A program made the translations under genes and the position numbers. From Myxococcota bacterium (GTDB lineage Bacteria > Myxococcota > Kuafuiibacteriia > Kuafuiibacteriales > Kuafuiibacteriaceae), in NCBI GenBank assembly GCA_965223435.1, contig CBDCWQ010000023.1, forward strand, positions 504,752 to 568,751: 64,000 bases of DNA, given 5' to 3'. The notes beneath the pieces are model-generated. The model did not search any database. It saw nothing but the letters and a program-made list of their open reading frames with translations, and was not told the DNA's origin. Positions 6,095-61,744 of this stretch are shown piece by piece (positions within the stretch are counted from its first letter, which is position 1; each line of letters begins with the position of its first letter).

Positions 6095-6250
6095 TTCGCG
6101 CCTGGAGTCGCCTGCTTGGCCAGCGAGGTCAAGCGCCCATTTGCCTGTGCTTCGGGGAAACGCGCCGTCTTTGTTGGGGGGGCGGGCTCGCATTGCCGAT
6201 TGCTCCGGTGGCCACGAATTCGTATGGTCCCGGTTGCTTGCCCTGATTCG

Positions 6251-7498: not shown

Positions 7499-7579
7499 CG
7501 GGTGCACCCACGTCGTTTTGTCTTTGACAGTGGCTTCTTTCCCACCGCATGAACTGTCACCAGGCGTGAATGCGCGCCG

Positions 7580-7661
7580 GCCGGGATGGCGGAACGGTAG
7601 ACGCGGAGGCCTTAAAAGCCTCTGTCCGATGGGCGTGGGGGTTCGAGTCCCCCTCCCGGCA
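7580..7661 (+). tRNA. tRNA-Leu (anticodon TAA), class II with a long variable arm
   Basis: Manual fold: acceptor gccggga/tcccggc, D-arm gcgg..acgc, anticodon stem gaggc/gcctc with loop cTTAAaa, variable arm tgtccgatgggcgt, T-arm ggggg-ttcgagt-ccccc, discriminator A. No CCA is encoded. Confidence 0.8.
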
Positions 7662-10861: not shown

Positions 10862-11827
10862 ATGGACCTCCAGGAGGTTGTGCACGCGGTTCGAAGCCGT
10901 GACGGCGTCACGCTTCGCATGACCGAGGTTTTTGTCGGTTCTGGGCCCCGAAGCCACTCGGCGGTGCCTTTTCTGCTCGTCCACGGTTTCATGCAAAATC
11001 GCCACGCCTTCTTGCTTGGCGACCTTCCGAGAACACTGCTGGACCGCGGCGCCCGTGTTTTTATTGCAGAGCTTCGGGGGCACGGCCGCAGTTTGGATCC
11101 TTCGCGCCTCGAAAACACCACGCGCCTAGAAACCCATCTCGACGAAGACCTGCCCGCCTTCCTCGACTTCATCCAGGGCTTGGTCCGCCAAAAGACAGTG
11201 CACATTGTGGCCCACTCGATGGGCGGCTTTTTGGGCTACGCGCTTCTGGGCCGCACCACAGCCCTCGCGTCGTTGACGACCCTGGGGGCCCCCATCTTCC
11301 TCGCCAAAGGGCGCCCGCATTTACGGGCCAGCGCGGTCGTTTTGGGCACTGCCGCCGCCTTGTGGCCTCCCGAGCGGCTCCCCCTCGATCGCGCTTTGCT
11401 CTCGCTCTCTCATCTGCTCGCACGTCCAGAGGCGTCCCCTCTGTTGCGGGTCTTCCAGCGGCTGACCGGTCTTGCAAACCCGGCCCAGGTCGCACCCGAA
11501 CGGCTACAAGCGGCGCTCGAGGCCGCAGATCCGGCCATCACCCGGGTCTTCATTCAACTCGCGCGCATGGCCATGGGGGGCAGGGCGCAAATCGGGGGTG
11601 TCGATTTGTGTCGGGCGGTGCGGATGAGTCCGATCCCTATCGCTTTTGTCGTGGGATCAAGAGACCTTTTTGGCGGTCGGCTCGGCGTCCAAGGGGCGCT
11701 CGGACCAGGGCACCGCGGCCCCCGAACGTTGGTCGAGATTGAGGGCGGCGCCCACGTGGACCTCACGGTGGGTCCACAGGTGGCGTCCCGAGTGGAGGCC
11801 CTGTGGCCATTCTTGGTCAGTGCTTGA
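10862..11827 (+). CDS. Alpha/beta-fold hydrolase. An internal ATG at 10919 (MTEVFVG...) is a likely alternative start.
   Basis: The protein has LLVHGFMQNRHAF (HG oxyanion region) and the nucleophile elbow AHSMGG, with Asp/His in the C-terminal half (VGSRDLFGG; GGAHVDL). Confidence 0.75.
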   Translation: MDLQEVVHAVRSRDGVTLRMTEVFVGSGPRSHSAVPFLLVHGFMQNRHAFLLGDLPRTLLDRGARVFIAELRGHGRSLDPSRLENTTRLETHLDEDLPAFLDFIQGLVRQKTVHIVAHSMGGFLGYALLGRTTALASLTTLGAPIFLAKGRPHLRASAVVLGTAAALWPPERLPLDRALLSLSHLLARPEASPLLRVFQRLTGLANPAQVAPERLQAALEAADPAITRVFIQLARMAMGGRAQIGGVDLCRAVRMSPIPIAFVVGSRDLFGGRLGVQGALGPGHRGPRTLVEIEGGAHVDLTVGPQVASRVEALWPFLVSA

Positions 11828-11863
11828 CAACCCGAGCGGTCGCACCGTACCCGGTACTCCACT

Positions 11864-11947
11864 GCGAAAGTGGCGGAATTGGTAGACGCGCAGGATTCAG
11901 GTTTCTGTGGGAGTATTCCTGTGGGGGTTCGAGTCCCCCCTTTCGCA
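11864..11947 (+). tRNA. tRNA-Leu (anticodon CAG), class II with a long variable arm
   Basis: Manual fold: acceptor gcgaaag/ctttcgc, D-arm gcgg-aattggtag-acgc, anticodon stem cagga/ttctg with loop tTCAGgt, variable arm tgggagtattcctgt, T-arm ggggg-ttcgagt-ccccc, discriminator A. The 3' end lies 5 nt from the RHS gene stop on the opposite strand. Confidence 0.8.
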
Positions 11948-11952
11948 TCCAA

Positions 11953-14900
11953 TCAGCGGCCGACGATCGTTCTGCCGGTGGCCCGCTGTAGAGCCTCGTA
12001 GTGGAGGCTCTTGTGTTGCCGGAACAAAAACAGGTCGATGAACGCTTCTTTCGGGTTTGTCAGTCGCAAGCCTTTGTCGATGAGCGTGGTCAAGATGGAC
12101 GGATTGAAGTGCGATGCGCCGTTGCGGTCGATGTAGATCAAGTCCCCGGTGGTATCGTGCCTGAGCCATGGCGCGACGGCGCCCACTTGCGGGACCAGAT
12201 CGAGGTTGTGGGCCGTCCGAAAAAAACCTGATTTTTGCGTCTTCAGATTTTCTTTGAAAGCGGTGTGAAAGTTGGTGTTGCCAACCGGGGGTTGGCCGAC
12301 CGTATAGGTGGCCGTAATGGGCATCTTGCGCTTGAGCCCATACGCAGAAAACAGGGTTGCCAGCGCACCGCCCAAACTGTGGCCGGTGACCACAATCTTC
12401 AAGCGCTCCGGATTCTTGGCTTGGTAAACCTGGAGGCTTCTGAGCACGTCCGGTTTGACCGCCAGAAACTGAGCCAAAAAGCCTGCATGAACCGAACCGC
12501 TTCCGAAGAGGTCTGGGGCGTAAGCGGGGGCTCCCCATAGGTCGAGGACTCCGTCTATGACGCTGAACGTCCCCCGGAAAGCCACGAGTGCCGTATTGGT
12601 TTTGGGGTCGTACGCGGTGAACGCCTGGGCGTCGACGATTTTCTTATCGATGGTTCTCACGTTTTCGAAGCCAAGCGCCTTCGCCCGTTTTCGGACGTTG
12701 GCGGGTGTGTCGTAGGCGATGATGCTCGCAAGAGACGTCAAGTGGGCATTGACGGGGTTGAATTTGCGGTCATCCGGCATCCAATGGACACCTTGGTCTT
12801 CATGGCCATCCAGATTGTGGGCCGTCGCCCCCAGAAGGTCGACCCGGTTGATGGGATCGTTGTCCAAAAAGGCGTAGAGGTTTTTTGTGCTCGCTTCTCC
12901 CAAGGGATCCCGACTCAGCCATCGCCCCTCAGCGGGATCGTAGTAGCGGTAGGTGTAGGCGTACAGTTGGGTTTCACGATCATAGTACTGCGTGCCGTAT
13001 CGGAAGGGCTGGATATCGAGTCCCCGAGAAGCCATGAGGCGTCCGAACGGTGAGTATTCGTACTGTGAGACCACTTGTCCGTCTCCACTGACCAATGCGG
13101 TGACACTTCCATTGCGATCCATGACGGGGAAGTAGCTTTGCCCGTCTCGCCCCACCGCCAGGAGCCCTCGCGCGCCGCCGGCGCCCCCTTTTTTGTGGGA
13201 ACTGTCCAGGCCCCACAGATAATAAGCGCGCCGGGTTAAGGCTCCACTGGCGGGGTCGGCATCGTACTCCGCGATGAGATGGAAGTTGTGGTAAACAAAA
13301 CGCCGATCCAGCGTCTTGACCGAGTAGTTGGCCCCTTTCCACACGCTCTTCGAGGTGCGTCGTCCAAAGGCGTCGTAGCCAAACCGAAGTTGGTACTGGC
13401 CATCCTTGGTTACGGTCTTGAGCCGTCCACGATTCGTCCAGGTGTAGATATGTTCGCCATCTGTCTTGCGGGCGCCAAAGGTGTTGTAGCTTTGTGTGGT
13501 CTCGCCGCTTCGTGGTAAACGAACAGACTCCGAGTGTTCGGAAACAAGTTCCCCTTCACCGGTAGGCGATGGCATCACCATCTTGAATTGAAGAGCGATG
13601 GGGTCTCCGCCTTGAGCCGGCCCCGGGGCAATTCGTGCGTGAAACCACGATCCGTGGCGGTCGACCGGCGCGTTGTCTGCGAGAACCAGACCGTCGGTCT
13701 CACGGGTTGCGCTCACGGTGAGGGACGCGGCTTCGTCGACGCTTCCGCTGAAGACGAGGGCCCCGGCTAGGTTGCGGGTTTCGTATTGATTGGTGCTCGA
13801 GGGTTGATAGCTGTCTTCAGGCTCTCCGGTATTGGGCTCGATGGCACCGGCCTTGAGCCGATTTCCGATGGCGTCGTAGACGTAGTGAAATTGTCTTCCG
13901 CTTTGGAGTTCGCCCGTATTAGATATGCGGGTGCTTGCGGAGGTCAGTTGGCCCAAGGTGTCATAGCTGTAACGCGTATAGGTCTGTGATGGCGCAAACA
14001 GGGCGGCGGTGTTGTAGACTCGCCTATCGGTTCGGGTCACTTGACCGCTGGCGTTGTAGCTATACTTATGTGCCCCATACACCACGGCCGCATCCGAAAC
14101 CTGGTTGTCGGTTGTGCGGATAAGGGTCAGGCGCCCGCTTTCATCATAAGCAAGCTCGGTCTTGCCTCGCACCACATCGGCGACCGAGTGGGTGATGGCG
14201 GCCACACGTTGGGTCTGGGTTTCGTAGGCGTAGCTACCGCTTCTTTGCCCCTGAGACACGCGGCTCAAACGGCCGGCATCATCGTAGGCATACGAGAAGA
14301 CCAGTGGATGGGGTCCTCCGACGAGTTCCAAAGCGGTCAGCCGATGCATGGCATCGTAGTGTCGTTTTAGGGTTGCGTCACCGAGTTGGGGCACCGACTC
14401 CGTAGCGATTCGGCCCTCTTCGGTATAGGTGAGCGCCGATTGCCCCACCAAGGTCACCCGTCCCCGGGGATCATAGGCCAACGGGGTTCCACCAAAAGAG
14501 GTCAAACGTCCCGCGTCATCATACTCTGAGGTCGCGGTACGGGCCCCAGCTTCGCTCGGATTCCCGATCGTTCGACTGTGAAGCCTGCCCGCGGGTGTAT
14601 ACTTGTGGGACTCGACGGGGATGCCATCGACGGTCTTTTGGGTGACCAGGCCGCGTTCATCTCGCTCGAAGATGGTTTCCACATCGTCGTTCGTGACCAG
14701 CTTAGAGACTTCACCAAATCGATCGTATTCGAGGTCGTACGTGTACGAACCGGTTCCGGACCTACGCGCGAGCGCACCGTCCGGATGGTATTGGAACGCT
14801 TCCATTCCGCCCGGGCCCTGAATGGTTTGGACGTTGCCAAAGAAGTTGAAAGTCCGCTGAAGCACGGTCCCCGAGGGCATTTCGGTCGTCTTGGGAAGCC

Positions 14901-17900
14901 CTCGTCGGTCGAGGGTATGGGTGGTCGTTCCCTCCGGGGTTTGAGATTGGGTACGGCGTCCATAGGCATCGTAGCTGTGGGCGTAGGTCGAGAGCGTCTC
15001 ATCGCCATGGGTTTTGTGGATAAGGGCCTTGAGCTGGCCGCCCTCGTATTCCTGAACCGCGATGACGTCAGGCGTCGCCAGTCTTTCCCGCCAGGCGCCC
15101 GGGCCGGTAGGCAGTCCGCGACTGTAGTTGAAGACCACCGTCCCGTTTTGGATGCGTGCGGCTTTTCTTCGGTCCGCCGTAGAGTAGCTGGTGGTCACCG
15201 CACGGTTTGAAAACGAGCCCTTCGCCTCTTTGCGAACGAACGCCAGCAGTCCGGCGCAAGACGTTCCCTCCGGGCAGGTCGCCACGTTTTCTTGAATGTC
15301 GAGGAGAGGGTCGTTGGCATCCGCCACACCGTTCTGGTTGAGGTCGGTGACGGTTTTGGTCAATTGGCCCGAAAGATCATACGCATAAAGATGGACGACG
15401 CCGTCTGGGTCGGTCTCTTGGGTCAGCCGTTGATGGGCGTCATAGGCATAGCGAGTGGTTGCCAGCTCGCCTTGATGGGGTCTGCTCACCTTGGAAAGAA
15501 GGCCCAGGTGGTTAAACGCTTCGGTCTTCACCACGGTGAGGTTGCCCTCGGCGTCGGGGCGCAAGGTCTCGGTGTAGGGGCCGGTTTCACCCGTACGGTG
15601 CCGGTAGCGAATGATTCGATAGGGGGTTTGTTCGCCGGCAACGTAGGTTTCGACGCGGTTCAAATTCCGGTCCACGTTTCGGTATTCGAGGCGTCGGCTG
15701 CCGTCTGGTTGGTGCGTTTCGGTGATCGTTCCGGGAAACCCGTCGAATCCCGGGGGGTGGTATTGGGTGGTGGTCTCATGGCCTTCGGCGTCGGCTTCGA
15801 AAACTGGTCTTCCAAGGGCGTCGTAGCGGATCTTTGTGGTGAGGGGTGCGCCCTCGCCGAGGGGGTAAAGCGTTTCTTGAATGAGGTTGCCGGTCGCGTC
15901 GTAGTCGCGTTTTGTGGTTCGGCCGAAGCGGGTCATGCTTTGGGGTTGGCCCAACACTGTGTAGGTGTACGTCGAGACCGAAAGATCGCGATGGGTTCTT
16001 TGTTCTGGTTGGCCATGCCATTTGGTCTGGGTCAGGTTTTCAGAGGTGCCATCATCGTGGTTCCACGTGGTCGGGTGACCGAAGGGGCCGATGTCGGTAG
16101 CGACCGATTCTCCGGTCAAGGTGTCCCCTCGGGTCACTTTCCATGTGGATTGGATGGCATGGCCGTACGAAAGGGTCACCGATTCTTCGTTTCGATGCGT
16201 AAGTCCTCCGGCCCCGGGGCCCTCGGTGATGAGATGTTCCGAATACCGCCTGGTGTCGTGAGGCCATCTTCGCTCGCGGGTGATGGTTGTGTTGCCCACG
16301 GTGGTGCGGGTTCGGTTGGAGACCGAGACTTTGGGTTCGCCGTCGATGATGGCCGATGAGCGCTCGGTCACTTTTCGATGCACACATGCGTCCCAAGCGA
16401 CACCGGGTTGACATCTTCGTTCTTCGTCGATGTACCGAGGGGTGTTTCGATCGCCCTCTTTTTTGAAGGCAAATCGGCCCACGCTGATTGGAATGGAATC
16501 GGTGGCGGCGCCGGTGCTGGGTGCCAAATCGAGCACCCGCCTTGGTCTCGCAAAGAGTTGGCGTGCGTCTGGCGTATCGCCCGCCGAAGCGAGGGGGCTG
16601 TAGGTCACCTTCGTCTCGCGTTTCGCAAAATGCCCGAAGGGTCGGATGATTCGGGATAGCCAGCCAGTGCTCACGGTGATGGTCTCACCGGTCGTGGGGT
16701 TGAGCTCCGGTTCGCCGGTTGCTGGGTTCAAGAGTTTACCCACGGCGTCGTATTCGAACTCCTCCCAGTAGCCGTCCGGGTATTGGATCCTTTGTACTTT
16801 GGCCATCTTCAGGGCTCCGTTTTCATAGCGGTCGAGGGTGGTCCCCTCCTGGTACTCTCGGATTTCGGGGGGCACCGAAACGGCCGCCCCGTTTTCGTCG
16901 CTGATGCTCCGGTGGATCTCTTTGGTGTAGCCGTGGGGCGTCAGCACGGTTCGCTGGCGAAAGAAGCGCCCATTGGCCAGGAGTTTGGTTTCGATGGTCT
17001 CGCCCGACTTGGTCCAGGCGACTCCGGTGCCTAGAGGGCCGAGCCGGATGATGTTTTCGTCGCCCTCGACGATGCGGAAACTTTCGTCGGCATCGTCTTT
17101 GATCAAGGATTGGATGCGTCCTTCAGCGTCGTACTGCACGGTGGTTGTGAGGGTGGCCTCGTCCGAAGTGCCCTCGCCAAAGACCCGCCTGAGGGTCTTG
17201 ATGCGTCCGGAAGACCAGTCCAAATACACTTTGTATTCGTCTGAAGTGGCCTGGCCGTCCGAGACCATCGCCAAGCGGCTGTATACGTTCTGTTCGCGGC
17301 CATCGATGTGGCGAACCCGTTGTATGGTTCGGTCAAAAACATGGGCGATCCCCGACTCAAAGTGGAGCTCGTACTTCCAGTCGGTGTCGTGCCCGGGGGT
17401 CATGTCGTGAAGGACATAGGTCCGGCCCGCGTTGATGCCGAGGGGGAAACCGCGCGATGCGAAGTTTGAGGTTGCAGGGTCCCAAGGAAAGTCGAACTCT
17501 ACTTGATTGCCTCGCGGTCTGGTCACGACGACGCGCTTCAGGTGCACACCCCCGTGGGACAGAAGCACGGCGTTTCGTACCCGGGTGTTGAGGCTATAGG
17601 CTTGAAAGAGGGTATCGTCGGCCTTTTCGTATTGGATGTTGTCCGTGGCTTTCTGCATCGCACCTTGGTGGATGTAATGGGCGACACCAAGGTGTTTGTG
17701 CTGATAATCATTGGGCGGAAGAATGGGGAGGAAGACCTGTGGCTCGTCACCCCACTTGGGCTGAAAGGTGATGACTCCACCTTTTTTCATTGCGCTGTCC
17801 AGATCGATGCCGACATCGACGAGGTCATCACGGTCGGTGTCCTGAATCGTCTGTGCGGTGTGCTCGAACAAAAGAGGCAGCTGGGCTGATGGCGGCGGGG

Positions 17901-19275
17901 GCAGGTCCGCAAAACCCGGCCGGTAGGCGGCCACCACGCGATTGACATCGACTTCGAAGGGAAGCTTCCTGATGGTTCCGCTTTCCGTTGGCTCCGGCAG
18001 AACAAATCCGTCTTCGGGCAAAATGGCCTGAGGGAGAACCTGCGCGCTGATCCATTCCGTCGAATCTGGAGCCACGGTCGCGTTTTGATCGAGCACATAA
18101 AGACCATGATCTGAGGCGCTGAAGCCTCCAAAAGGCGCAGTCATGCTGGCACTCACGGCGGCCCGTTTAAACAGCTTGACCTGGGATTCGACTGCGCTCG
18201 GCCACATCGGAAGCTTAAATCGAAACGTTTGGGTCTGCTTGGTCGAATAGATCCACTCGCCGAGTTGGCCGTGAAACTTGATTTTGGCGATGAGCAGCTT
18301 CGGATCCGGTCCGGAACAGCTGGAAAGAGGGCACCAGGGGGCCCATCCTGGCAACCATCCGGTATCGGTGTCGCGCTCCACCATTCGATACTTCAAGTCA
18401 TGGACGCCTTTCGATTGTGCGTTTCGGTACCAAATCGGCTCCCTCCAGGCGTTGAGTGCTTTGAGCACCAAGTAGGCCTCTTCCAGCTGATGAGACGTGA
18501 TGAGCCCTACGCCAGCATGCTTATCGGCCACATAGGGGCTATCGAACGCGACGATTTGGTCTTCCTCTGTTCCCGGACGTGGCACCCGAAGTTCCTCGGC
18601 AAAAAGCAGCCTGAAGTCTTCGGCAAGCCCCAGCCCGGAAAAGAGGTTTTCTTTGTTCTTGACCTTTCCCAGATTGATGGTGTCGGCGCTCAGCGGCGAA
18701 TCCCAATAGAACCAAGCGCGGGCACGGTCGAGATCGCTTGGTACTTCAGAGTCCAGCGATGGCGCCATCAAGCCATTGAGCTCGGACAACATTTTTCGCA
18801 AGAAGGCGCGATCTTCGTCCACGCCTTGCACCAGTTCTTCTTGGTCGTAGACTCCATTCAGATTTCGGTCGATGTATCCGAGCCTATCCCGGCGTCCCCA
18901 AGCCCCTTCTGGCGGAGCGCCCAAGAGAACCGTATCGATGCCGGCCTCGAAGGTCCGGTTGCCATTGGTGTCTTGCCAGATGTGGTTTTGGGATCTGAGC
19001 ACGCTTTCAGGGGCAGGCAGTGTGGGAAGCGCTCCTGGCGAGACGGGCTGCCCCATGGCCTTCAAAAAGCGGAGCCGGTCAACCAGCGCCGGGTACAGTT
19101 TGTTTCGGAGGTAATCTTTGTGAGCCTCGGTCAGCGTCTGGCCGTCGATATCGTTTCGATAGACGGGCGTTTGGGCAACGGCGTCGGCTGCGGCGGTGGG
19201 GCCATCTTTGGATGCGATGCGGCTAGAGCACGCCGACAAGGAAATCGCGATAGTGAGTGCAATTTTTCGATACAT
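11953..19275 (-). CDS. RHS/YD-repeat polymorphic toxin (2440 aa) with a lipoprotein signal peptide and a C-terminal class-3 lipase (alpha/beta hydrolase) toxin domain
   Basis: The N-terminus MYRKIALTIAISLSAC has a lipobox. Many YD repeats are present (YDALGRP, YAYDAHQRLTQETDPDGVV, YDAYGRRTQ, YSYDTLGQLTS, YDAIGNRL). The RHS core end reads YRYYDPAEGRWLSRDPLGEASTKNLYAFLDNDPINRVDLLG. The roughly 370-aa C-terminal domain has the nucleophile elbow GHSLGGALATLFS (Lipase_3). Confidence 0.85.
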   Translation of the reverse strand: MYRKIALTIAISLSACSSRIASKDGPTAAADAVAQTPVYRNDIDGQTLTEAHKDYLRNKLYPALVDRLRFLKAMGQPVSPGALPTLPAPESVLRSQNHIWQDTNGNRTFEAGIDTVLLGAPPEGAWGRRDRLGYIDRNLNGVYDQEELVQGVDEDRAFLRKMLSELNGLMAPSLDSEVPSDLDRARAWFYWDSPLSADTINLGKVKNKENLFSGLGLAEDFRLLFAEELRVPRPGTEEDQIVAFDSPYVADKHAGVGLITSHQLEEAYLVLKALNAWREPIWYRNAQSKGVHDLKYRMVERDTDTGWLPGWAPWCPLSSCSGPDPKLLIAKIKFHGQLGEWIYSTKQTQTFRFKLPMWPSAVESQVKLFKRAAVSASMTAPFGGFSASDHGLYVLDQNATVAPDSTEWISAQVLPQAILPEDGFVLPEPTESGTIRKLPFEVDVNRVVAAYRPGFADLPPPPSAQLPLLFEHTAQTIQDTDRDDLVDVGIDLDSAMKKGGVITFQPKWGDEPQVFLPILPPNDYQHKHLGVAHYIHQGAMQKATDNIQYEKADDTLFQAYSLNTRVRNAVLLSHGGVHLKRVVVTRPRGNQVEFDFPWDPATSNFASRGFPLGINAGRTYVLHDMTPGHDTDWKYELHFESGIAHVFDRTIQRVRHIDGREQNVYSRLAMVSDGQATSDEYKVYLDWSSGRIKTLRRVFGEGTSDEATLTTTVQYDAEGRIQSLIKDDADESFRIVEGDENIIRLGPLGTGVAWTKSGETIETKLLANGRFFRQRTVLTPHGYTKEIHRSISDENGAAVSVPPEIREYQEGTTLDRYENGALKMAKVQRIQYPDGYWEEFEYDAVGKLLNPATGEPELNPTTGETITVSTGWLSRIIRPFGHFAKRETKVTYSPLASAGDTPDARQLFARPRRVLDLAPSTGAATDSIPISVGRFAFKKEGDRNTPRYIDEERRCQPGVAWDACVHRKVTERSSAIIDGEPKVSVSNRTRTTVGNTTITRERRWPHDTRRYSEHLITEGPGAGGLTHRNEESVTLSYGHAIQSTWKVTRGDTLTGESVATDIGPFGHPTTWNHDDGTSENLTQTKWHGQPEQRTHRDLSVSTYTYTVLGQPQSMTRFGRTTKRDYDATGNLIQETLYPLGEGAPLTTKIRYDALGRPVFEADAEGHETTTQYHPPGFDGFPGTITETHQPDGSRRLEYRNVDRNLNRVETYVAGEQTPYRIIRYRHRTGETGPYTETLRPDAEGNLTVVKTEAFNHLGLLSKVSRPHQGELATTRYAYDAHQRLTQETDPDGVVHLYAYDLSGQLTKTVTDLNQNGVADANDPLLDIQENVATCPEGTSCAGLLAFVRKEAKGSFSNRAVTTSYSTADRRKAARIQNGTVVFNYSRGLPTGPGAWRERLATPDVIAVQEYEGGQLKALIHKTHGDETLSTYAHSYDAYGRRTQSQTPEGTTTHTLDRRGLPKTTEMPSGTVLQRTFNFFGNVQTIQGPGGMEAFQYHPDGALARRSGTGSYTYDLEYDRFGEVSKLVTNDDVETIFERDERGLVTQKTVDGIPVESHKYTPAGRLHSRTIGNPSEAGARTATSEYDDAGRLTSFGGTPLAYDPRGRVTLVGQSALTYTEEGRIATESVPQLGDATLKRHYDAMHRLTALELVGGPHPLVFSYAYDDAGRLSRVSQGQRSGSYAYETQTQRVAAITHSVADVVRGKTELAYDESGRLTLIRTTDNQVSDAAVVYGAHKYSYNASGQVTRTDRRVYNTAALFAPSQTYTRYSYDTLGQLTSASTRISNTGELQSGRQFHYVYDAIGNRLKAGAIEPNTGEPEDSYQPSSTNQYETRNLAGALVFSGSVDEAASLTVSATRETDGLVLADNAPVDRHGSWFHARIAPGPAQGGDPIALQFKMVMPSPTGEGELVSEHSESVRLPRSGETTQSYNTFGARKTDGEHIYTWTNRGRLKTVTKDGQYQLRFGYDAFGRRTSKSVWKGANYSVKTLDRRFVYHNFHLIAEYDADPASGALTRRAYYLWGLDSSHKKGGAGGARGLLAVGRDGQSYFPVMDRNGSVTALVSGDGQVVSQYEYSPFGRLMASRGLDIQPFRYGTQYYDRETQLYAYTYRYYDPAEGRWLSRDPLGEASTKNLYAFLDNDPINRVDLLGATAHNLDGHEDQGVHWMPDDRKFNPVNAHLTSLASIIAYDTPANVRKRAKALGFENVRTIDKKIVDAQAFTAYDPKTNTALVAFRGTFSVIDGVLDLWGAPAYAPDLFGSGSVHAGFLAQFLAVKPDVLRSLQVYQAKNPERLKIVVTGHSLGGALATLFSAYGLKRKMPITATYTVGQPPVGNTNFHTAFKENLKTQKSGFFRTAHNLDLVPQVGAVAPWLRHDTTGDLIYIDRNGASHFNPSILTTLIDKGLRLTNPKEAFIDLFLFRQHKSLHYEALQRATGRTIVGR

Positions 19276-19709
19276 TCTGGCTTCCCTGCCCCAACTCTAG
19301 GGCACTGGACATGCGGAGACGCAAGGTCTCCGCAGGAATTTAGGTATACACCGCGGTGATGATTTGAATCCTGACAGGCCTCGGCGACGATGACACCGGT
19401 ACAGTCCTTGTCCGTATCCTCCTGGGAGCCCTATGAGTCCATTGGGCATCGGTGTCATCGTTGTCGAGGAGCTTTACGTGGTCGTCGCAGGCGCCATCCT
19501 GTGACTTGAGAGTTGAGCTCAGAACCGCACCATCGCAGTTGAACGGCTGAGATGTGTTTACAGCGGGTCGAATCGGCTTCCTTCCCATATGAAGCACCTA
19601 CGTACGGCCTCGTGGGTGGGGCGAAAAAAAAGAGGCGGTGTGGCGTTTTGGGGCAAAGGTTTATAGATTGAGCCAAAAACACTCGGGTTGCGGTGTGTGG
19701 TACGTCACA

Positions 19710-21266
19710 TCAGTGAAGAACAATGTGACACAGAACATAGGAAGCGAAGAGGGCCAGACCGCAGTTTCGAACCGTAGGATCTTTGCCGGTGAACAGCCCG
19801 GTTGCGAAGACCTTTTTCTTGTTTTTGGCGATGGCCGGTATCAACACAAACGCGAATGAGACCAAAATCGCGCCTGCGGCTCTTACGAGGTAGGCGGTCC
19901 CGGGCATCAGCACCGCAAAGGCATAGGTTATGGCGATGCTCAGAAAGAGGGCTGTGGCAACCCAGGTTCGTTTGGGGCTAAACAAAAAAGTTGCGCTTGC
20001 GATCAGGATCACAAATCCGTTTTTGATGTAGTAGCTTGCGGCATTGAATTGGTGGGTCAGCGCAAGTTGGGGGTTGTCATACTTGACGTAGACAAACACA
20101 AAGGCGGTTCCGACGCCGGTGAACCATGCTCCCATGATGACTCTTTTTGCGACCGAGACAACCTCTTGGTCGGTGGCATCGGGTTTGAAATAACGCTTGT
20201 AGATATCGCATGAAACCAACGTGGACACCGAATGAAAGGTCGAGTCGACGGTGCTCATCAGCGACGCAAAGAGGCCACAGAGGACAAGCCCTCGAAGGCC
20301 GACGGGAAGATACCGCTGCGCAAGAACGATGTATGCCTGGTCTGGGTCCAAAAGCGGTGTCTTCGACAAAATGACGGACATGGCGATGCCAGGGACTACA
20401 ATGATGATCGCCATGAAATATTTCAAAAAGCCTCCGACCAAGAGGCCGATCTGCGCCTGTTTGAGATTTTTAGCGGCCAACGCCCGCTGAAGAATGACCT
20501 GATTGGCACCCCAGTAGTTGAGGTTGAGGAGCAGCATGCCGAAGATGGCCGTCCAGGGCAATTTGGGGTGGCTATGGTGAAGATGGAGGTGCATCTGTTC
20601 GGGAGCCTGTTGATAGAGTTGTGAAAGACCACCGGCCGCGTGGACAGCGACGAAGACCGTAAGGAGTCCTCCGCCAAGGAGCAGCGCGAATTGGATCACG
20701 TCCGTGCGCACCACCGCATGAAGACCTCCGGCTCGGGTGTAGATGGCAGAAAAGAGTCCTAAAAAGGCTATCAGCCCCATGAGCCTGAGGGCGGGGTTTG
20801 TTCCGAAAAAGCCCAGGGCTTCAAAAAAGATTCCGTCGATGGCCAAAGCGGCCCAAAAGAGGACTTTGCCGAGGTACAAGAACGCATAGAGGACGATGGT
20901 CAAAAAAGAGTAGCCCAAGGCGATGCGAGGCCCGAACTTGGCTTCGATGAACTCGGTGATTGTGGTCACCCTGAGCCGAAGATAGATGGGCACAAATACG
21001 AAGGCCGCCAGCAACAGTCCAAAGATGGCGTTGATTTCAAATCCTGCTTGTGCCAGCCCGTATTTATACGCCGAGCCGGCATTGCCGATAAGGTGCCCAG
21101 CTGAGATGTTGGTGGCGATCGTCGAGACCGCGATGGAAAACCACCCGAGCGAGCGTGAGCTTAAGAAGAATTCGGTGGCCTTGACGCCTTTTTTGTCTCG
21201 GCTCCGAACACCGATGACCAAAAGCGCCAAAAAATAGGCCAGCACCATGAGCCCATCAAGCCACAT
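19710..21266 (-). CDS. Sodium:solute symporter (SSS/SSF family) transporter
   Basis: A 518-aa polytopic membrane protein with the SSS-type N-terminus (FFLSSRSLGWFSIAVSTIATNISAGHLIGNAGSAYKYGL) and about 13 TM segments. Confidence 0.8.
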   Translation of the reverse strand: MWLDGLMVLAYFLALLVIGVRSRDKKGVKATEFFLSSRSLGWFSIAVSTIATNISAGHLIGNAGSAYKYGLAQAGFEINAIFGLLLAAFVFVPIYLRLRVTTITEFIEAKFGPRIALGYSFLTIVLYAFLYLGKVLFWAALAIDGIFFEALGFFGTNPALRLMGLIAFLGLFSAIYTRAGGLHAVVRTDVIQFALLLGGGLLTVFVAVHAAGGLSQLYQQAPEQMHLHLHHSHPKLPWTAIFGMLLLNLNYWGANQVILQRALAAKNLKQAQIGLLVGGFLKYFMAIIIVVPGIAMSVILSKTPLLDPDQAYIVLAQRYLPVGLRGLVLCGLFASLMSTVDSTFHSVSTLVSCDIYKRYFKPDATDQEVVSVAKRVIMGAWFTGVGTAFVFVYVKYDNPQLALTHQFNAASYYIKNGFVILIASATFLFSPKRTWVATALFLSIAITYAFAVLMPGTAYLVRAAGAILVSFAFVLIPAIAKNKKKVFATGLFTGKDPTVRNCGLALFASYVLCHIVLH

Positions 21267-21333: not shown

Positions 21334-23481
21334 CTACAAGAGCGGGCCGGGCGAGACGCTCACCGAGTCTACGAAGAAGAAGCCTTTGCCGACGTCACCG
21401 GTGGCGGTGTCAGGCACCCGGTGCTCGCCACCGATGGCGAAATAGCCGTTCCTGAGGGTGTTGGCACCCAACATATGCGGACCACGCGCGGTGCCGTTTG
21501 TTCCACTGAGGGGGAGGTTTTTGCCTTCGTTGTCGAGCACGCGAATTCGAAAGGTTGTCGCGTCGAGGGAAAGCTCAAGCGTGAGATCTTGGCCCTGGTT
21601 GGCATCGCTGAGTCGCCCAGAATAGACCAAGGCTCCGCGGGCACCGGGGTCATCGGTTTTGGTGAACAACGAGAGCGTGAGGCTGTCGACTTGGGCATCG
21701 TAGTCCACGGCCAAGGTGGCAGCGCCCGGAGCCCGCAGAGGGCTGTCTTCTTGGCTGACCGCCGCCAAAATGGCTCGAACGTCGGCCCCCGGCCTCGTGG
21801 TGTCGACCGAGATTTCGCGCAATCGCATTCGGTAGATGATGCTGGCATTGTCGCCGGTCCGGGAAATGGGCATGGTGGTCACCATCCCGCGTTCCTCGCT
21901 GAGGTCGAGGTCTTCGATCCCTACGCGAAACCAAACTTCTCCTAGGGCGGAACGGTCTTGTACCAATCCGTCTTCAAAGAAGCGATCTAGATTCCAAAGG
22001 CCATCGGCGAGCGGAGCCAAAAAGTCGTCAGAAAAACGGGTGGTGTTGGGGCCGGGGGCGATGGGCTCGAACGCGTAGTCGCATACCACGAGCTCTCGAC
22101 CCGAGGGGTCTTCGGGATTGGTATTGATGGGGTCTTTGCCCTCAAATTGCCACAGATTGATTCGCACCGTGTCTCGGATGAGGGCGGTTTCGTCGGCCGG
22201 GACTGGTATGGCGGCATCCGGGTACGTCCATTCTTCGATGATCACCCGATCGGGGTTGTCGTTTTGGTCCAAGCCGCCGTGATGGGCGGCAAACTCGACA
22301 GAGTCGCGCTGCCAGAGAAAACTGAACGTTGCCATGTCGCCCTCTTCAGAGAAGTCGTTGCCGCTGAGGTCGTAGGCGTGGATGTTGTTGCCCGCGCCCC
22401 CGGATACACCCTGGACGGTGAAGTAGCCATTGCCCTGAGGCGATGGCGGCAAGAAGGCCTCGGTGAACTCGATATCGATTTCGTTGGGTTGGTCGGGATC
22501 CTCCAAAAACGTGAAGAGCCCTGCGACCACATTGGGGTCGAGAGATTCGACACCCTTTTTGACGGCGAACCGGAACAGTCCATAGCCGACCGGGTCGGTC
22601 CCGATGACTTCGGCACTGTGCCATGCACCGTTTCTTTGGGTGATCGCCAGATGAAGACAGTCTTCGTTGTCGATGAACACGGCGTCGGAGAGATTGGACC
22701 ACCGATTGGGACCGGGACCCAGAAGTTCTTCATCGCCGGTCGCGGACTTGACGCGCCATTGTTGGCCTTTCCAAGTGATGGTCTGCAGACCGACGACTGT
22801 CATGGTGATTTCGGTCTCAAACATGCCCACATCGTCGAAAACTTGGACCCTCACCAGGTATTCGCCAGGTTGGAGCGGTGCGGTCCAGTCGGTTTGAACG
22901 TCGTCGGTGCTCGAGACCGAGCCCGCCTCTGGCAGCCACAGGATGCTGGGGTCTTGTTCGGAGTCATCGTCGGTTGCGACGACCTCGAGCCGAATGGTGC
23001 TGCCTATTTCGACCACGCCCTGGGTAGAGGGAAAGACGGCGTGGATCACGGGGGCGGCGTTGGCAAAACGAGGGGGCGGCTCGGTCGGCTGAAGGGTTAT
23101 GGCAACAGAATTGTTCTCGGGTGTCACCACCGGAACCATCGTGGTCCCGGTGAGCACGGGCTCAGTCGCAGAACTTGCGGTATCGAACAGCTCGAAGACC
23201 AGGGTTCGGTTGCTGCCCACCGGGATGCCCTCGACGGTGACGGATGGGGTTTCGCCGTTCCAGTCCTGGCTGATGACGACCGGGGAGGGGAGGTCGCTTC
23301 CGCTTACGGTCAAACGAAGTTGGTCGACGTCATGGGTCACGCCGCCTACCACAACAATGGTTGCTGAGGTCTTCCGTTCGGGGCCCGCTTGTTGGCCGGA
23401 ACCACACGCCAAGAGGGCCGCCGCCGTCAAAGGCAGAATCCGGCGCAGTGTGGGACAAGCAGAGTATGGTCTTGGCGACAT
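21334..23481 (-). CDS. Secreted lipoprotein with a GH16-like (concanavalin A-like glucanase) domain
   Basis: The lipobox is LLACGSG. The ExDxE catalytic-type motif NEIDIEFTEA sits in a beta-jellyroll-like context (WHSAEVIGTDPVGYGLFRFAVK...GLFTFL). N- and C-terminal Ig-like regions flank it. Confidence 0.6.
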   Translation of the reverse strand: MSPRPYSACPTLRRILPLTAAALLACGSGQQAGPERKTSATIVVVGGVTHDVDQLRLTVSGSDLPSPVVISQDWNGETPSVTVEGIPVGSNRTLVFELFDTASSATEPVLTGTTMVPVVTPENNSVAITLQPTEPPPRFANAAPVIHAVFPSTQGVVEIGSTIRLEVVATDDDSEQDPSILWLPEAGSVSSTDDVQTDWTAPLQPGEYLVRVQVFDDVGMFETEITMTVVGLQTITWKGQQWRVKSATGDEELLGPGPNRWSNLSDAVFIDNEDCLHLAITQRNGAWHSAEVIGTDPVGYGLFRFAVKKGVESLDPNVVAGLFTFLEDPDQPNEIDIEFTEAFLPPSPQGNGYFTVQGVSGGAGNNIHAYDLSGNDFSEEGDMATFSFLWQRDSVEFAAHHGGLDQNDNPDRVIIEEWTYPDAAIPVPADETALIRDTVRINLWQFEGKDPINTNPEDPSGRELVVCDYAFEPIAPGPNTTRFSDDFLAPLADGLWNLDRFFEDGLVQDRSALGEVWFRVGIEDLDLSEERGMVTTMPISRTGDNASIIYRMRLREISVDTTRPGADVRAILAAVSQEDSPLRAPGAATLAVDYDAQVDSLTLSLFTKTDDPGARGALVYSGRLSDANQGQDLTLELSLDATTFRIRVLDNEGKNLPLSGTNGTARGPHMLGANTLRNGYFAIGGEHRVPDTATGDVGKGFFFVDSVSVSPGPLL

Positions 23482-23593
23482 GTATGGGGGCCTCTTTGCG
23501 ACTCGCCCTCGGGTTTTGGACCTTTTGGCTCAGGTCTAGGCGAACACCTAAGATACTGGATCTGTTCGCTTTCATCTACCCCAAACGCGCACT

Positions 23594-25294
23594 GTGCGGC
23601 TCAAATCCGCACACCGGTGTGGATCGTGGGTATTGAGGGTGGGGTTCTTGCGACGTTGGACCCGAAGCGTCAAGGGGAGGGCTCATTGCTGCTTTTTCGG
23701 CACCTGCTTTCGTCGGGGGCGTTGTCGTCTTGGGGGATCGATAGGTGAGGAAGTGGAGCAGATTGGATTGCTGTGTCTGGAGTCACATCGTCGTTGGGCC
23801 TTGGGGCCAACGAATATTGCGCGTGCTAGGCATTACACTGTATTCTCGCGGACCGGTGGTTCTCGTTTACACGCATGGGCTTTGGGCGAAGGTGCTGATC
23901 TGGGCGCCAGTGCCACCGACCCAAAAAGCCGGATCCGCTGCACGGTGACGTTTTTGCGAAGCACTTGGTTTTGGGTTGCGCTTGTCGCCCATCCGTTGGG
24001 GGGCTGCGGTTCCTCCGATTCCTCGTGCGGATTTGGCGCGGCGTGTGACGCGGCGAACTCCAGCACGGACCCTTGTACCGGGGTTGTCTGCACGGCGTGC
24101 AACCGCTGTGAGGGTGGGGTTTGTGTGGCGGTTGAGGACGGCGGTCCGTGTATCGATGGGACGTTTTGTACCGTCAACGAGGTGTGCAGGGCCGGGGTTT
24201 GTGCGTCCGAACCGCGTGACTGCGCCCATCTGACCAGCGCATGCGTGACGGGGGTCTGCGATGAATCGAGTCGGGCCTGTGTGGGGCGGTCCGATCCCGC
24301 GCTCGACAGCGATCTTGATGGGGTCTGTAACGATGTGGACCGATGCCCGGGCGGGGACGACGGTCTCGATGACGACCAAGATCGGATTCCCAACGCGTGC
24401 GAAACGTGCCCGGGATACGACGAGGGCTTAGGACTTTCGCTCAAGTGGCCCCTTGCCGGCAAGATTTCCGAGGACTGGATCGTCTCAAACTACTTAGACC
24501 ATGATGACCGTGCGGACGAGCTCTCGGACCACACGGGCAACCAAGGTGACGCAGCCCGAACCTACGATGGCCATAACGGCGTCGACGTTTCCTTGGCCAA
24601 CTTTCGGCTCATGGACTCCGAAATTCCGGTTTTTGCGGTTGCGGCTGGCACCGTAGAAAGAACCGCGGATGGCCACCAAGACCGCAACATCAGTCGTTTC
24701 AATTGCCCTCCGTCCAATTTCGTCGACGTTCGACAGGACAATGGCTTTCTCATTCGCTACCTGCATTTCAAGAAGGGTTCGGTGATGGTGCAAGAAGGGG
24801 CTCGGGTGCTCCAGGGTCAACTGTTGGCTTTGGTGGGGAGTTCTGGCTGCTCAACCTGGCCTCACCTTCATCTTGAGATTCGGGACTGCGACCATGAGGT
24901 TGTAGATCCCTTCATTGAGGGATTGTGGGCTGAGGCGCCTCCTTACGAAGCGCCTCTTGGTCTGATGGATGTGGTCATCAATGAGGGGGGCTTTACGGCC
25001 ATCGAACAGATGCGGGATCCGCTTCCCAATGTGACCGACTTCCGGGTGGGTGAGACCATCGGAATAGGGTTGGTGATGGGGGGTGGGGTGCCCAAGGACG
25101 AGGTCTCTTTTGCTTTGGTGGACCCCGGTGGTTCTCGCTTTGCAAGCGGTGCGGTCACGTACGAAAAGCACTATCGACGGGCCTTTTGGTGGTGGAATCG
25201 CAGCCTTTCGAACGCCAGCCCAGGTGCTTGGCGGGTCGAAATCTATCAAAACGGCGTTGAGGTTCGACGGGTGGCGTTTGTCATCAAGCGCTGA
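23594..25294 (+). CDS. Cys-rich secreted protein with a C-terminal M23 (LytM/lysostaphin-type) metallopeptidase domain. The start is uncertain; an in-frame GTG at 23945 precedes a lipoprotein-like signal.
   Basis: A signal-like stretch is present (FWVALVAHPLGGCGSS). Repeated C-x3-C-x-C modules follow (CTGVVCTACNRCEGGVCVAV; CIDGTFCTVNEVCRAGVCA; CVTGVCDESSRACVG). The M23 motifs are HTGNQGDAARTYDGHNGVD, FAVAAGTV, and the HxH motif WPHLHLE. Confidence 0.75.
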   Translation: MRLKSAHRCGSWVLRVGFLRRWTRSVKGRAHCCFFGTCFRRGRCRLGGSIGEEVEQIGLLCLESHRRWALGPTNIARARHYTVFSRTGGSRLHAWALGEGADLGASATDPKSRIRCTVTFLRSTWFWVALVAHPLGGCGSSDSSCGFGAACDAANSSTDPCTGVVCTACNRCEGGVCVAVEDGGPCIDGTFCTVNEVCRAGVCASEPRDCAHLTSACVTGVCDESSRACVGRSDPALDSDLDGVCNDVDRCPGGDDGLDDDQDRIPNACETCPGYDEGLGLSLKWPLAGKISEDWIVSNYLDHDDRADELSDHTGNQGDAARTYDGHNGVDVSLANFRLMDSEIPVFAVAAGTVERTADGHQDRNISRFNCPPSNFVDVRQDNGFLIRYLHFKKGSVMVQEGARVLQGQLLALVGSSGCSTWPHLHLEIRDCDHEVVDPFIEGLWAEAPPYEAPLGLMDVVINEGGFTAIEQMRDPLPNVTDFRVGETIGIGLVMGGGVPKDEVSFALVDPGGSRFASGAVTYEKHYRRAFWWWNRSLSNASPGAWRVEIYQNGVEVRRVAFVIKR

Positions 25295-30787: not shown

Positions 30788-30958
30788 ACCTCTTCTTTTG
30801 CTGCTGTCGTGGATGGCTGCCCGAAAGGGGCGGCAAGAGAAGAGGCCGCGGTGGTCTTAAACACGAACCCTTGACCGCTCATCCTCTTCCTCCTGCCATC
30901 GGCTGAGGCCGTCCGCCCTTGTTGAATCGCTTTGGGCCTCTTGCAAAAGATCCTCAGA

Positions 30959-33043: not shown

Positions 33044-33181
33044 CTCAGAAACTTCCTTTCTTCAGCCCACCACGTCGGTTAAGAGATGAACTGTTTTCTT
33101 GCGGGCGTAGGTCCCGGGTTGGCGTGCCCAACACGCCCCGAAAACGTGTTGAGAACAGCCCGTATGATGGACGGTAGGTCA

Positions 33182-60780: not shown

Positions 60781-60860
60781 GCAAAGAACGGACGACCTCG
60801 TCAAAACATCATCTATGAAAGGCGACAATATTGCTGACCGACTTCAGAACTTCGTAACCT

Positions 60861-61370: not shown

Positions 61371-61371
61371 T

Positions 61372-61740: not shown

Positions 61741-61744
61741 AAAA

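Follow-up and report, generated by a model that had tools for sequence, protein, structure and literature searches.

The protein encoded at positions 11953..19275 (minus strand) of the 64-kb window, by which is meant the whole stretch of DNA analysed, is a predicted lipoprotein in which a shell of RHS/YD repeats is followed by a class-3 lipase. We put at about even the chances that it is a lipid-anchored RHS/YD cage toxin, independent of type VI secretion (T6SS) and borne on the cell surface or on vesicles, whose fixed lipase payload is directed against non-self cells, prey or competitors. A fixed-payload weapon against non-self is suggested by three observations: the lipase is conserved at least as well as the shell, the same lipase occurs on other lipoprotein carriers, and no immunity gene is linked to it. 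The gene is real. It comprises 2440 codons between an ATG, the earliest start available in the open reading frame, and a TGA stop (11953-11955), and its GC content by codon position (GC1/2/3 = 0.61/0.47/0.68) is coding-like and even along the whole length.

The lipase payload and its relatives

A complete Rhizomucor-type lipase domain (aa 2150-2440; 11956..12828, minus strand) of 291 residues, 32.0 kDa and pI 9.7 begins directly after the predicted cleavage site. Pfam Lipase_3 matches it at aa 2231-2364 (E 4e-24; 85 bits against a cut-off of 22), and phmmer matches it to R. miehei and Rhizopus lipases. The predicted catalytic triad consists of Ser2300 (codon 12376-12378), Asp2359 (12199-12201) and His2421 (12013-12015), all on the minus strand. 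The first of these lies in the nucleophile motif GHSLGG (aa 2298-2303) and, like Asp2359, aligns with its counterpart in R. miehei lipase (Ser144 and Asp203, respectively), while His2421 sits in a (D/Q)Hxxxx(Y) motif. All three residues are invariant across seven sequences. The Lipase_3 C-terminal domain proposed by the sequence-only reading of this DNA is thus upheld by both Pfam and the alignments, and the possibility that it might lack a catalytic residue has fallen away. An AF2 model of the domain (pLDDT 82.6) gave FaeA and R. miehei lipase as its best Foldseek matches, at E ~1e-12, the value also obtained for the entries 1tgl and 6qpp.

Close relatives are few: a small family (P0046-P0051 and P0063) was recovered solely by exhaustive HMMER search. 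A word-indexed search with the lipase domain returned only stand-alone lipases, at no more than 42% identity; scans of genome collections with the full protein and with the lipase alignment, together with a metagenome scan, yielded no close relatives and only generic class-3 lipases of up to 39% identity. Identity to P0046 and P0051 is 53 and 35%, respectively, in the lipase, 27-35% in the shell and 23-25% over aa 17-465. Judged from these three full-length sequences, the lipase ranks with the best-conserved segments and is conserved no less than the shell. It also turns up on other carriers: in P0048 the same lipase is borne by a lipoprotein of canonical DUF6531-RHS type that also has a transglutaminase domain, and in P0063 by a Laminin-G lipoprotein whose gene is probably in the same genome as the one described here. 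The protein and its relatives share the same C-terminal ...VGR*, marking a native end; it follows that the RHS-lipase protein is not truncated.

The label 'polymorphic' toxin, previously attached to this protein, is therefore doubtful, the lipase being a conserved rather than a variable segment among relatives. The hallmark of polymorphic toxins, a conserved N-terminal region and shell joined to a hypervariable C-terminal domain and accompanied by orphan CT cassettes, is not apparent in the three sequences compared. Neither orphan CT/immunity cassettes nor other rhs or lipase fragments were found in the 64-kb window.

The repeat shell, its core and the N-terminal half

The shell (aa ~701-2050; 13126..17175, minus strand) extends for ~1350 aa ahead of the core and is recognised by Pfam RHS_repeat (PF05593, E 6e-24) and TIGR01643 (E 2e-15), with YD motifs beginning at aa ~704. 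Together with the core, the repeats span ~1450 aa, and the shell profile matches solved structures of T6SS Rhs and teneurin-like proteins. There follows the RHS-associated core or aspartyl autoprotease (aa 2051-2149; 12829..13125, minus strand), matched at aa 2074-2149 by NCBIfam Rhs_assc_core (TIGR03696; 77 bits against a cut-off of 32.5). Its predicted autoprotease residues R2118, D2123 and D2146 are invariant in the three-way alignment A1. The motifs are DPLG at aa 2123-2126 and a terminal VDLLG at aa 2145-2149 (DPLG...x18...DLLG), so that the core does not end in the canonical DPxGL formerly assigned to it: the final cleavage motif is DLLG. The spacing of 23 between D2123 and D2146 is reportedly also that of YenC2 and TccC3. 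A repeat shell, a predicted Arg/Asp/Asp core and a toxin domain immediately after it together place the protein, by its sequence, within the RHS/YD-repeat superfamily.

At the opposite end of the protein lies a signal peptide II assigned from its sequence (19228..19275, minus strand). The N-terminus, MYRKIALTIAISLSAC, comprises a positive n-region, a hydrophobic core and then an LSAC lipobox, the cysteine of which (Cys16, codon 19228-19230) is invariant in alignment A1. A lipobox is present in all the full-length relatives (P0046, P0048 and P0051) and in P0063 as well. The residue at +2 after the cysteine is Ser, of the non-retention type. Neither DUF6531 nor any other T6SS domain was found in the protein, in keeping with the earlier view that it begins with a lipoprotein signal rather than a PAAR/T6SS-associated N-terminus.

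Beyond the lipobox, a poorly conserved region (aa 17-465; 17881..19227, minus strand), which has no Pfam match at E<=1, is followed by a family-specific module (aa 466-700; 17176..17880, minus strand) with 44-45% identity to relatives and the invariant motifs DTDRDDLVD, RPRGNxVxFxFPW and GINxxRTYVL. A profile of aa 466-1100 found nothing in the PDB, nor any similarity to the DUF6531/RHS start of P0048. Sequence-level searches with aa 17-1100 gave no Pfam or PDB match, the TIP, FN-plug and NHL propeller of teneurin-like proteins (TLPs) included, and aa 1-1000 matched nothing at E<=1e-3 in a word-indexed search of 5.8 billion proteins. The AF2 model of aa 17-1100, built on an alignment of only three sequences, was unusable (pLDDT 29). 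As far as sequence comparison reaches, then, the ~1000 N-terminal residues resemble nothing known.

The lipobox with its non-retention +2 residue, and a host of an uncultured lineage that PurF assigns to the Myxococcota, are also what would be expected of a toxin moved between cells by TraAB outer-membrane exchange in the manner of SitA toxins, which are outer-membrane lipoproteins (PMC5562445); the sequence-only reading had raised this as a speculation. We consider it very improbable: the only similarity found for the protein is to RHS and lipase, and no immunity gene lies downstream. SitA toxins have an escort domain and a downstream sitI immunity gene, since siblings receive the toxin too. 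To our knowledge, TraAB exchange is confined to some Myxococcales, and the PurF encoded in the window, at 66-72% identity to named Myxococcota MAGs, is no more than 72% identical to that of any named member of the phylum.

Genomic setting and the missing immunity gene

The gene converges on tRNA-Leu(CAG), which ARAGORN places with its encoded CCA at 11863..11951 (plus strand) and Rfam RF00005 at 11864-11947 (53.8 bits). Only 1 nt separates the RHS stop codon from the CCA, and 5 nt separate it from the end given by Rfam, the latter being the distance originally reported. Most simply, the tRNA is a mere neighbouring gene. The suggestion of a truncated island inserted at the tRNA gained no support: a search of the 64 kb for its 3'-end repeat, allowing 2-3 mismatches, found the last 16-26 nt in a single copy, with no direct repeat in 52 kb, no integrase was found adjoining the tRNA (transposases occur only at 59.6-63.9 kb), and the protein has its native end.

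Upstream, as had been described, a non-coding leader or promoter region of 434 bp (19276..19709, minus strand) separates the gene from that of a sodium:solute symporter (19710-21266, minus strand). The leader contains an inverted repeat with 20-nt arms at 19379-19398 and 19450-19469 (z = -2.66); it matches no Rfam family, giving only sub-threshold miRNA-hairpin noise, and scans for promoters and terminators gave no more than would be expected of shuffled sequence. Synteny with the PurF relatives (L161-L163) is lost immediately beyond tRNA-Leu(TAA), ahead of the RHS locus.

Downstream of the gene come the convergent tRNA and then a convergent hydrolase gene. Scrutiny of both gene ends for hidden small open reading frames, which could have refuted the claim that no immunity gene accompanies the toxin, left that claim standing: no co-directional immunity frame is present up- or downstream, and none near 11554-12538 or 19297-19682 is coding-like or has a Pfam match. 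The small frames flanking the gene have GC3 of 0.45-0.66 and the wrong GC1/2/3 pattern, compared with a GC3 of 0.61-0.76 in real genes. Two overlapping frames among them, at 11897-12538 and 11554-11952 (both minus strand), were rejected as immunity genes on their GC-by-codon-position pattern and want of a family match; the alpha/beta-hydrolase gene at 10862-11827 (plus strand) was likewise set aside, being convergent and an ordinary Abhydrolase_1/6 member. PAAR and VgrG, said to be missing, were indeed not found by Pfam and NCBIfam among the scanned frames, which comprised most of those of at least 150 aa across the window and a few small ones adjoining the gene; a PAAR protein of ~100 aa could hide among the smaller frames elsewhere in the window.

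In bacterial teneurin-like toxins an immunity gene follows directly downstream almost without exception, and in chimeras the YD shell failed to protect E. coli from its cargo (PMC13018210). On both counts the missing immunity gene is an anomaly rather than an expectation. It could lie elsewhere in the genome, the window covering 64 kb of a contig of more than 2 Mb. A classical polymorphic Rhs toxin aimed at kin or competitors would then be conceivable, its periplasmic immunity gene being unlinked, for instance beside the P0063 lipase gene, or displaced by rearrangement at the tRNA. The architecture of RHS core plus toxin domain, the probable presence in the genome of another lipoprotein bearing a related lipase, the near-universal downstream immunity of teneurin-like toxins and the adjacent immunity proteins required by Lipase_3 T6SS effectors (PMC9980498) all speak for it, and the region does appear rearranged, as relatives differ in their gene order past tRNA-Leu(TAA). 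We nevertheless regard it as unlikely: there is no immunity candidate within operon reach, nothing has been cut from the C-terminus, variability does not reside in the payload and the window is devoid of orphan CT/immunity cassettes.

Conserved payload and absent immunity also fit a non-toxin, whether a surface-anchored, caged lipase for nutrition or remodelling or a teneurin-type adhesin, freeing its lipase onto extracellular or prey lipids. The neighbours are degradative enzymes: nearby genes, which we count in favour of the cage toxin as well, encode a lipoprotein that matches GH16/PKD weakly and below threshold and an M23 peptidase. The lipase domain has its nearest relatives among ordinary secreted class-3 lipases and feruloyl esterases. 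An ordinary exoenzyme would, however, have no use for a container of ~240 kDa, and RHS cages that have a conserved autoprotease are known to us almost exclusively as toxin-delivery devices; we judge this alternative distinctly unlikely.

Comparison with known systems and proposed mode of action

The implied novelty of the protein was overstated, since both Sec/SPII toxins with YD shells and T6SS-independent Rhs proteins with signal peptides have been described in Myxococcota (PMC13018210, PMC10433427). In the Gram-negatives, and Myxococcota especially, TLPs are predicted Sec/SPII lipoproteins with a YD shell (Raoelijaona et al. 2026, PMC13018210; PDB 9pt5/9ifo). The present protein resembles them in length (2440 aa, compared with ~2200-2450), in its Sec/SPII signal, the cysteine of which is invariant in relatives, and in a YD shell with a bipartite Asp autoprotease motif at its end, the C-terminal toxin of TLPs being cleaved and caged; the family profile matches TLP structure 9pt5 with an E of 8e-29. 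It departs from them in a payload of 32 kDa rather than ~15 kDa and in the absence of the downstream immunity gene that almost all of them have, and TLPs are not reported to carry a lipase payload (PMC13018210). M. xanthus Rhs4 and Rhs5 have signal sequences, are T6SS-independent and are thought to be contact-dependent toxins of the cell surface (PMC10433427). They are comparable, by description rather than sequence, as very large Rhs proteins of Myxococcota with signal sequences; they differ in being ~4000 aa long, encoded on Mx-alpha prophages and engaged in kin discrimination (PMC10433427), whereas here prophage context and immunity gene are lacking and the payload is a conserved lipase.

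The best shell and core matches (E ~1e-36) are to the T6SS Rhs effectors RhsA, RhsP, Tse5 and Tre23 (7q97, 8h8a, 8cp6, 7pq5), with which the Arg/Asp/Asp logic of the C-terminal autoprotease is shared; those effectors, in contrast, have no signal peptide, contain PAAR/prePAAR or bind to VgrG, and possess a DUF6531 plug and downstream immunity. As regards the payload, alpha/beta-hydrolase lipase domains are found in other interbacterial toxins, namely the Tle effectors, V. parahaemolyticus T2LipA/B, which share Pfam Lipase_3, and, likened here by description, Tox-ABhydrolase-3, a domain of classical polymorphic toxins with class-3 lipases (1lgy) as its nearest relatives (Zhang et al. 2012, PMC3482391). 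The Tle and T2Lip effectors differ in being T6SS cargo in their own right, with periplasmic immunity encoded by an adjacent gene. In the literature examined, no description of an RHS-Lipase_3 fusion was found.

The TcB-TcC cocoon of Tc toxins is likewise a large RHS cocoon, and its cargo is an unfolded enzyme of ~30 kDa. Tc toxins need no immunity gene, as their target is eukaryotic. A pre-toxin length of 2149 aa and a ~30-kDa cargo recall TcdB2-TccC3 fusions, and the core matches TccC and YenC; the protein might accordingly be a fused TcB-TcC-like subunit requiring a TcA translocator or, failing that, a T6SS cargo effector. Both are extremely improbable. No SpvB, TcdB_mid or TcA domain was found by Pfam in the protein or in giant neighbouring frames, the protein lacks DUF6531, the scanned frames include no PAAR or VgrG, and a protein with a lipoprotein signal could not be loaded onto T6SS or TcA in the cytoplasm.

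The delivery class is thus already known in Myxococcota, and the RHS-lipase protein is an unusual variant rather than a new kind of system. Unusual for the class are its 32-kDa lipase payload, the absence of a linked immunity gene, the ~1000 unmatched N-terminal residues and the conservation of the lipase. For the lipid-anchored cage toxin that we favour, the preprotein would be exported unfolded via Sec, lipidated and, with Ser at +2, sorted by Lol to the outer membrane. It would fold into a closed shell, cut the lipase off autoproteolytically and retain it inside; the cargo, about twice the size of a typical C-terminal domain, is assumed to fit, given the longer shell and the analogy with Tc toxins. 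The caged lipase would be displayed at the cell surface or on outer-membrane vesicles and, on contact with a target, freed to hydrolyse membrane glycerolipids through PLA1 or lipase activity. What the evidence suggests is not a kin-discriminating pair but a target among non-self cells, whether prey bacteria or eukaryotes, or lipids kept unexposed by the producer. More tentatively, we entertain a small family, confined to one lineage, of RHS cages that are lipid-anchored, dispense with immunity and combine a new N-terminal delivery module (aa 17-700), an enlarged shell and a fixed 32-kDa lipase into a weapon of predation or outer-membrane vesicles, in which the cage and the lipid asymmetry of the producer's own outer membrane would replace immunity.

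The general picture of Rhs biology is unchanged by this protein. If confirmed, it would represent an RHS/YD cage loaded with a membrane-lipid hydrolase roughly twice as large as the cargo reported for teneurin-like toxins, with a bearing on the cargo capacity of YD shells, and a counter-example to the rule that an immunity gene accompanies caged Rhs toxins. The N-terminal ~700 residues, with no detectable homologues, are a candidate module for surface display or target recognition. Confirmation would also bear on whether the Sec-exported Rhs proteins of predatory Myxococcota target prey rather than kin.

Gene and protein architecture

The RHS-lipase protein is encoded by the longest open reading frame of its neighbourhood (11953-19275, minus strand; 2440 codons, ATG start, TGA stop). 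At the three codon positions its GC content (0.61/0.47/0.68) agrees with that of bona fide genes in the window, which argues that the gene is real. These values stay even from end to end, the last 290 codons included, so the 3' part is no cassette of foreign composition. Upstream lie 434 bp (19276-19709) and then, on the same strand, a sodium:solute symporter gene. This leader contains an inverted repeat (19379-19469; 20-nt arms, 90% complementary, 51-nt loop) some 100-190 nt 5' of the start codon and folds better than its shuffles (z = -2.66); it yielded no match to an Rfam family.

The N-terminus, MYRKIALTIAISLSAC, combines a basic n-region, a hydrophobic core and an L-S-A-C lipobox and is, by its sequence, a textbook lipoprotein (SPII) signal. 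The ATG used is also the earliest start possible for the ORF. Two collinear relatives, P0046 and P0051, share Cys16 in the alignment, and lipoboxes also begin the remaining relatives that carry this lipase. By the sorting rules of E. coli and Myxococcus, Ser at positions +2 and +3 predicts sorting to the outer membrane. Transfer of such a lipoprotein between cells by outer-membrane exchange is considered unlikely.

Residues 17-465 are poorly conserved (25% and 23% identity to P0046 and P0051, respectively) and matched no family when one was sought. By comparison, aa 466-700 (45% and 44%) form a conserved, family-specific module bearing the motifs DTDRDDLVD, RPRGNxVxFxFPW and GINxxRTYVL; neither a PDB chain nor the plug (DUF6531) of canonical Rhs proteins was found to resemble it. 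YD/RHS repeats then extend over aa ~700-2149 (27-35% identity to the two relatives across shell residues 701-2050), ending in an RHS-associated core (TIGR03696, aa 2074-2149, 77 bits; 51% and 53% identity over aa 2051-2149). R2118, D2123 and D2146, all invariant, supply the catalytic Arg/Asp/Asp of the RHS aspartyl autoprotease, with the Asp-Asp spacing of 23 seen in YenC2 and TccC3. The canonical DPxGL ending previously ascribed to the core is not found: the final motif reads VDLLG, where relatives have DALG, DVLG, DPIGL or DPSGL. At ~1450 aa the shell is longer than those of type VI secretion (T6SS) Rhs proteins and bacterial teneurin-like proteins (TLPs), which measure ~1000 aa; Tc cocoons contain cargo of ~30 kDa.

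The lipase payload and its relatives

The payload (aa 2150-2440; 32.0 kDa, pI 9.7) matches Pfam Lipase_3 at E 4e-24 and, in phmmer searches, lipases of Rhizopus and Rhizomucor, with Ser2300 (GHSLGG) and Asp2359 aligning to the catalytic Ser144 and Asp203 of R. miehei lipase. His2421 forms part of a terminal (D/Q)H-x4-Y motif and does not vary among seven relatives. In the AlphaFold model the mean pLDDT is 82.6; the PDB structures that Foldseek ranks closest to it are A. niger feruloyl esterase A and R. miehei lipase (E ~1e-12 to 1e-13). Sequence and predicted structure both identify the payload as a class-3 lipase, and the Ser/Asp/His triad, whose absence would have spoken against the sequence-only reading, is present in full.

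A word-indexed search with the N-terminal 1000 aa returned no relatives, and one with the C-terminal domain returned stand-alone lipases only. When 1.84 billion cluster representatives were searched exhaustively with HMMER, the protein was recovered together with a very small family, all members being singletons from NCBI/ENA assemblies. P0046 (2462 aa, 35% identity) and P0051 (2304 aa, 32%) are collinear with it over their full length, while P0047 and P0049 are fragments. In P0048 (2736 aa), also a lipoprotein, a transglutaminase core, a DUF6531 plug and 24 canonical RHS repeats precede the same lipase at the end. P0063 (1267 aa), a lipoprotein comprising two Laminin-G domains and the lipase without RHS, probably comes from the same genome as the RHS-lipase protein, the contigs of the two being equal in length (2,023,055 bp). 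One other genome appears to hold three proteins with this lipase, P0048, P0049 and P0051, suggested to lie on a single contig (1,349,314 bp); one of the three, a fragment of 568 aa made up of RHS core and lipase, may represent an orphan module. The family is rare: neither GTDB species-representative genomes nor JGI metagenomes yielded a close relative when scanned.

The lipase is 53% and 35% identical to those of P0046 and P0051. Judged on these three sequences it ranks among the most conserved segments and is the variable part in neither comparison, a pattern opposite to that of classical polymorphic toxins. The protein might instead be a caged exo-lipase that is no toxin, a reading that we hold to be quite improbable.

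Neighbourhood, tRNA genes and synteny

Beyond the 3' end of the gene the coding strand carries only the antisense of a tRNA and then that of a convergent alpha/beta-hydrolase gene (10862-11827, plus strand). The tRNA-Leu(CAG) gene, on the plus strand, spans 11863-11951 with its encoded CCA according to ARAGORN and 11864-11947 according to Rfam; it is convergent with the RHS-lipase gene, whose stop codon (11953-11955) lies 1 nt from the CCA. Small ORFs near the 3' end (11897-12538, 11554-11952 and 11657-11845) and the 5' end (19297-19458, 19340-19597 and 19455-19682) have non-coding GC values at the three codon positions and match nothing in Pfam or NCBIfam. Searches of the rest of the window with the family, by tblastn and blastp, found no second rhs gene, orphan C-terminal cassette or second lipase. 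Within the 64-kb window, the absence of an adjacent immunity gene is confirmed.

The family profile matches T6SS Rhs shells at ~1e-36 and the solved TLP 9pt5 at E 8e-29, sequence alone being undecisive between them. No PAAR, VgrG, Hcp, TcA or integrase domain was detected in the ORFs scanned, namely most of those of at least 150 aa throughout the window and a few small ones beside the gene, a coverage that a ~100-aa PAAR protein farther off could escape. Assignment to a Tc or T6SS apparatus is unlikely. The original observation, of a lipoprotein RHS-lipase lacking PAAR, VgrG and a nearby immunity gene, is real and was well described, neither a hidden immunity ORF nor a missing triad having come to light.

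The further suggestion of a truncated island inserted at the tRNA finds no support. The last 16-26 nt of tRNA-Leu(CAG) are single-copy in the window, with up to 2-3 mismatches tolerated, and no long direct repeats flank the locus there. The C-terminus, YEALQRATGRTIVGR followed by the stop, is in register with the VGR ends of relatives, showing that the gene was not cut short by an insertion. The adjoining tRNA appears incidental. Transposase genes occur only ~48 kb away, where insertion-sequence remnants (59646-63868) comprise a DDE_Tnp_1 transposase fragment, an IS630-like HTH ORF and an IS66-family transposase.

Three Myxococcota contigs (L161-L163), reached through PurF at 70-71% identity, share the order PurF, HisKA_3 histidine kinase, tRNA-Leu(TAA) (4676-7661 in the window) and diverge immediately after this tRNA (7580-7661), L162 continuing with a transposase and an integrase. 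The region beyond is evolutionarily fluid, without a demonstrable specific insertion event. The listed PurF (4676-6325, minus strand) and kinase (5597-7498, plus strand) ORFs overlap by ~730 bp; since relatives' proteins are shorter (~460-530 and ~415-435 aa), the true starts are probably internal. Proteins named 'MAG: Myxococcota / Myxococcales / Deltaproteobacteria bacterium' match PurF at 66-72% identity, which places the window in a Myxococcota lineage that is uncultured and has been little sampled.

Closest on the same strand lie the symporter and a 715-aa lipoprotein (LLAC lipobox, weak GH16/PKD matches), with a divergent M23 peptidase on the opposite strand (21334-25294 for the latter two); beside the RHS-lipase and symporter genes, this makes up a small group of exported enzymes of lytic type. 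At 25298-34138 (minus strand), a 1829-aa protein with DUF3686 (E 7e-209), DUF7902 and AAA_5 comes first, then a 694-aa membrane protein lacking family matches and a 318-aa protein holding a 12-nt-period (AEGx)n repeat (33783-33962); these may constitute an uncharacterised ATPase system. Two giant minus-strand ORFs of coding-like composition, neither resembling the RHS-lipase protein, encode 3222 aa (37261-46929; no Pfam match) and 3565 aa (48538-59235; weak matches to retroviral-type aspartyl proteases only, near aa 1919-2128).

Known systems and possible role

Tox-ABhydrolase-3, lipase-like and closest to class-3 lipase 1lgy, is listed among classical polymorphic toxin domains (Zhang et al. 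2012, PMC3482391). The effectors carrying Pfam Lipase_3 that the Vibrio parahaemolyticus T6SS2 secretes have immunity genes beside them and, unlike the present payload, are not fused to Rhs (PMC9980498). M. xanthus Rhs4/5 are large, carry signal sequences and mediate T6SS-independent antagonism of kin (PMC10433427). TLPs, present in >20% of Myxococcota species and in Gram-negatives predicted to be Sec/SPII lipoproteins, have TIP, FN-plug and NHL domains before the YD shell; their C-terminal domain, ~15 kDa on average, is cleaved and kept in a ~44,000 cubic-angstrom cavity (Raoelijaona et al. 2026, PMC13018210). Those defining N-terminal domains were not detected by sequence in the RHS-lipase protein. 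With M. xanthus Rhs4/5 and TLPs published, its delivery class (a Sec/SPII, T6SS-independent YD cage in Myxococcota) is already known.

On the established signal, shell, core residues, and lipase fold and triad, a course of action may be proposed. The protein would be exported via Sec, lipidated at Cys16 and sorted by Lol to the outer membrane, fold as a closed cage and cleave itself after ~G2149. The 32-kDa lipase, unfolded or compact, would be retained until let out upon contact with a target membrane, which could be that of prey bacteria, reached by contact or outer-membrane vesicles, or of eukaryotes.

Nearly every TLP has an immunity gene directly 3', and in TLP chimeras the shell gave E. 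coli no protection from the cargo (PMC13018210). The main alternative, that immunity is encoded at an unlinked site, seems to us rather unlikely. A payload that is conserved and recurs on other lipoprotein carriers, together with the missing linked immunity gene, favours a fixed-function weapon over a kin-discrimination toxin/immunity pair. The RHS-lipase protein is an unusual variant of the Myxococcota signal-peptide Rhs or teneurin-like toxin class, not a new kind of system, notable for its large lipase payload, absent linked immunity gene, orphan N-terminal region and non-variable C-terminus; we give an even chance that it would serve as a fixed-function weapon aimed at non-self cells or at lipids not exposed by the producer.
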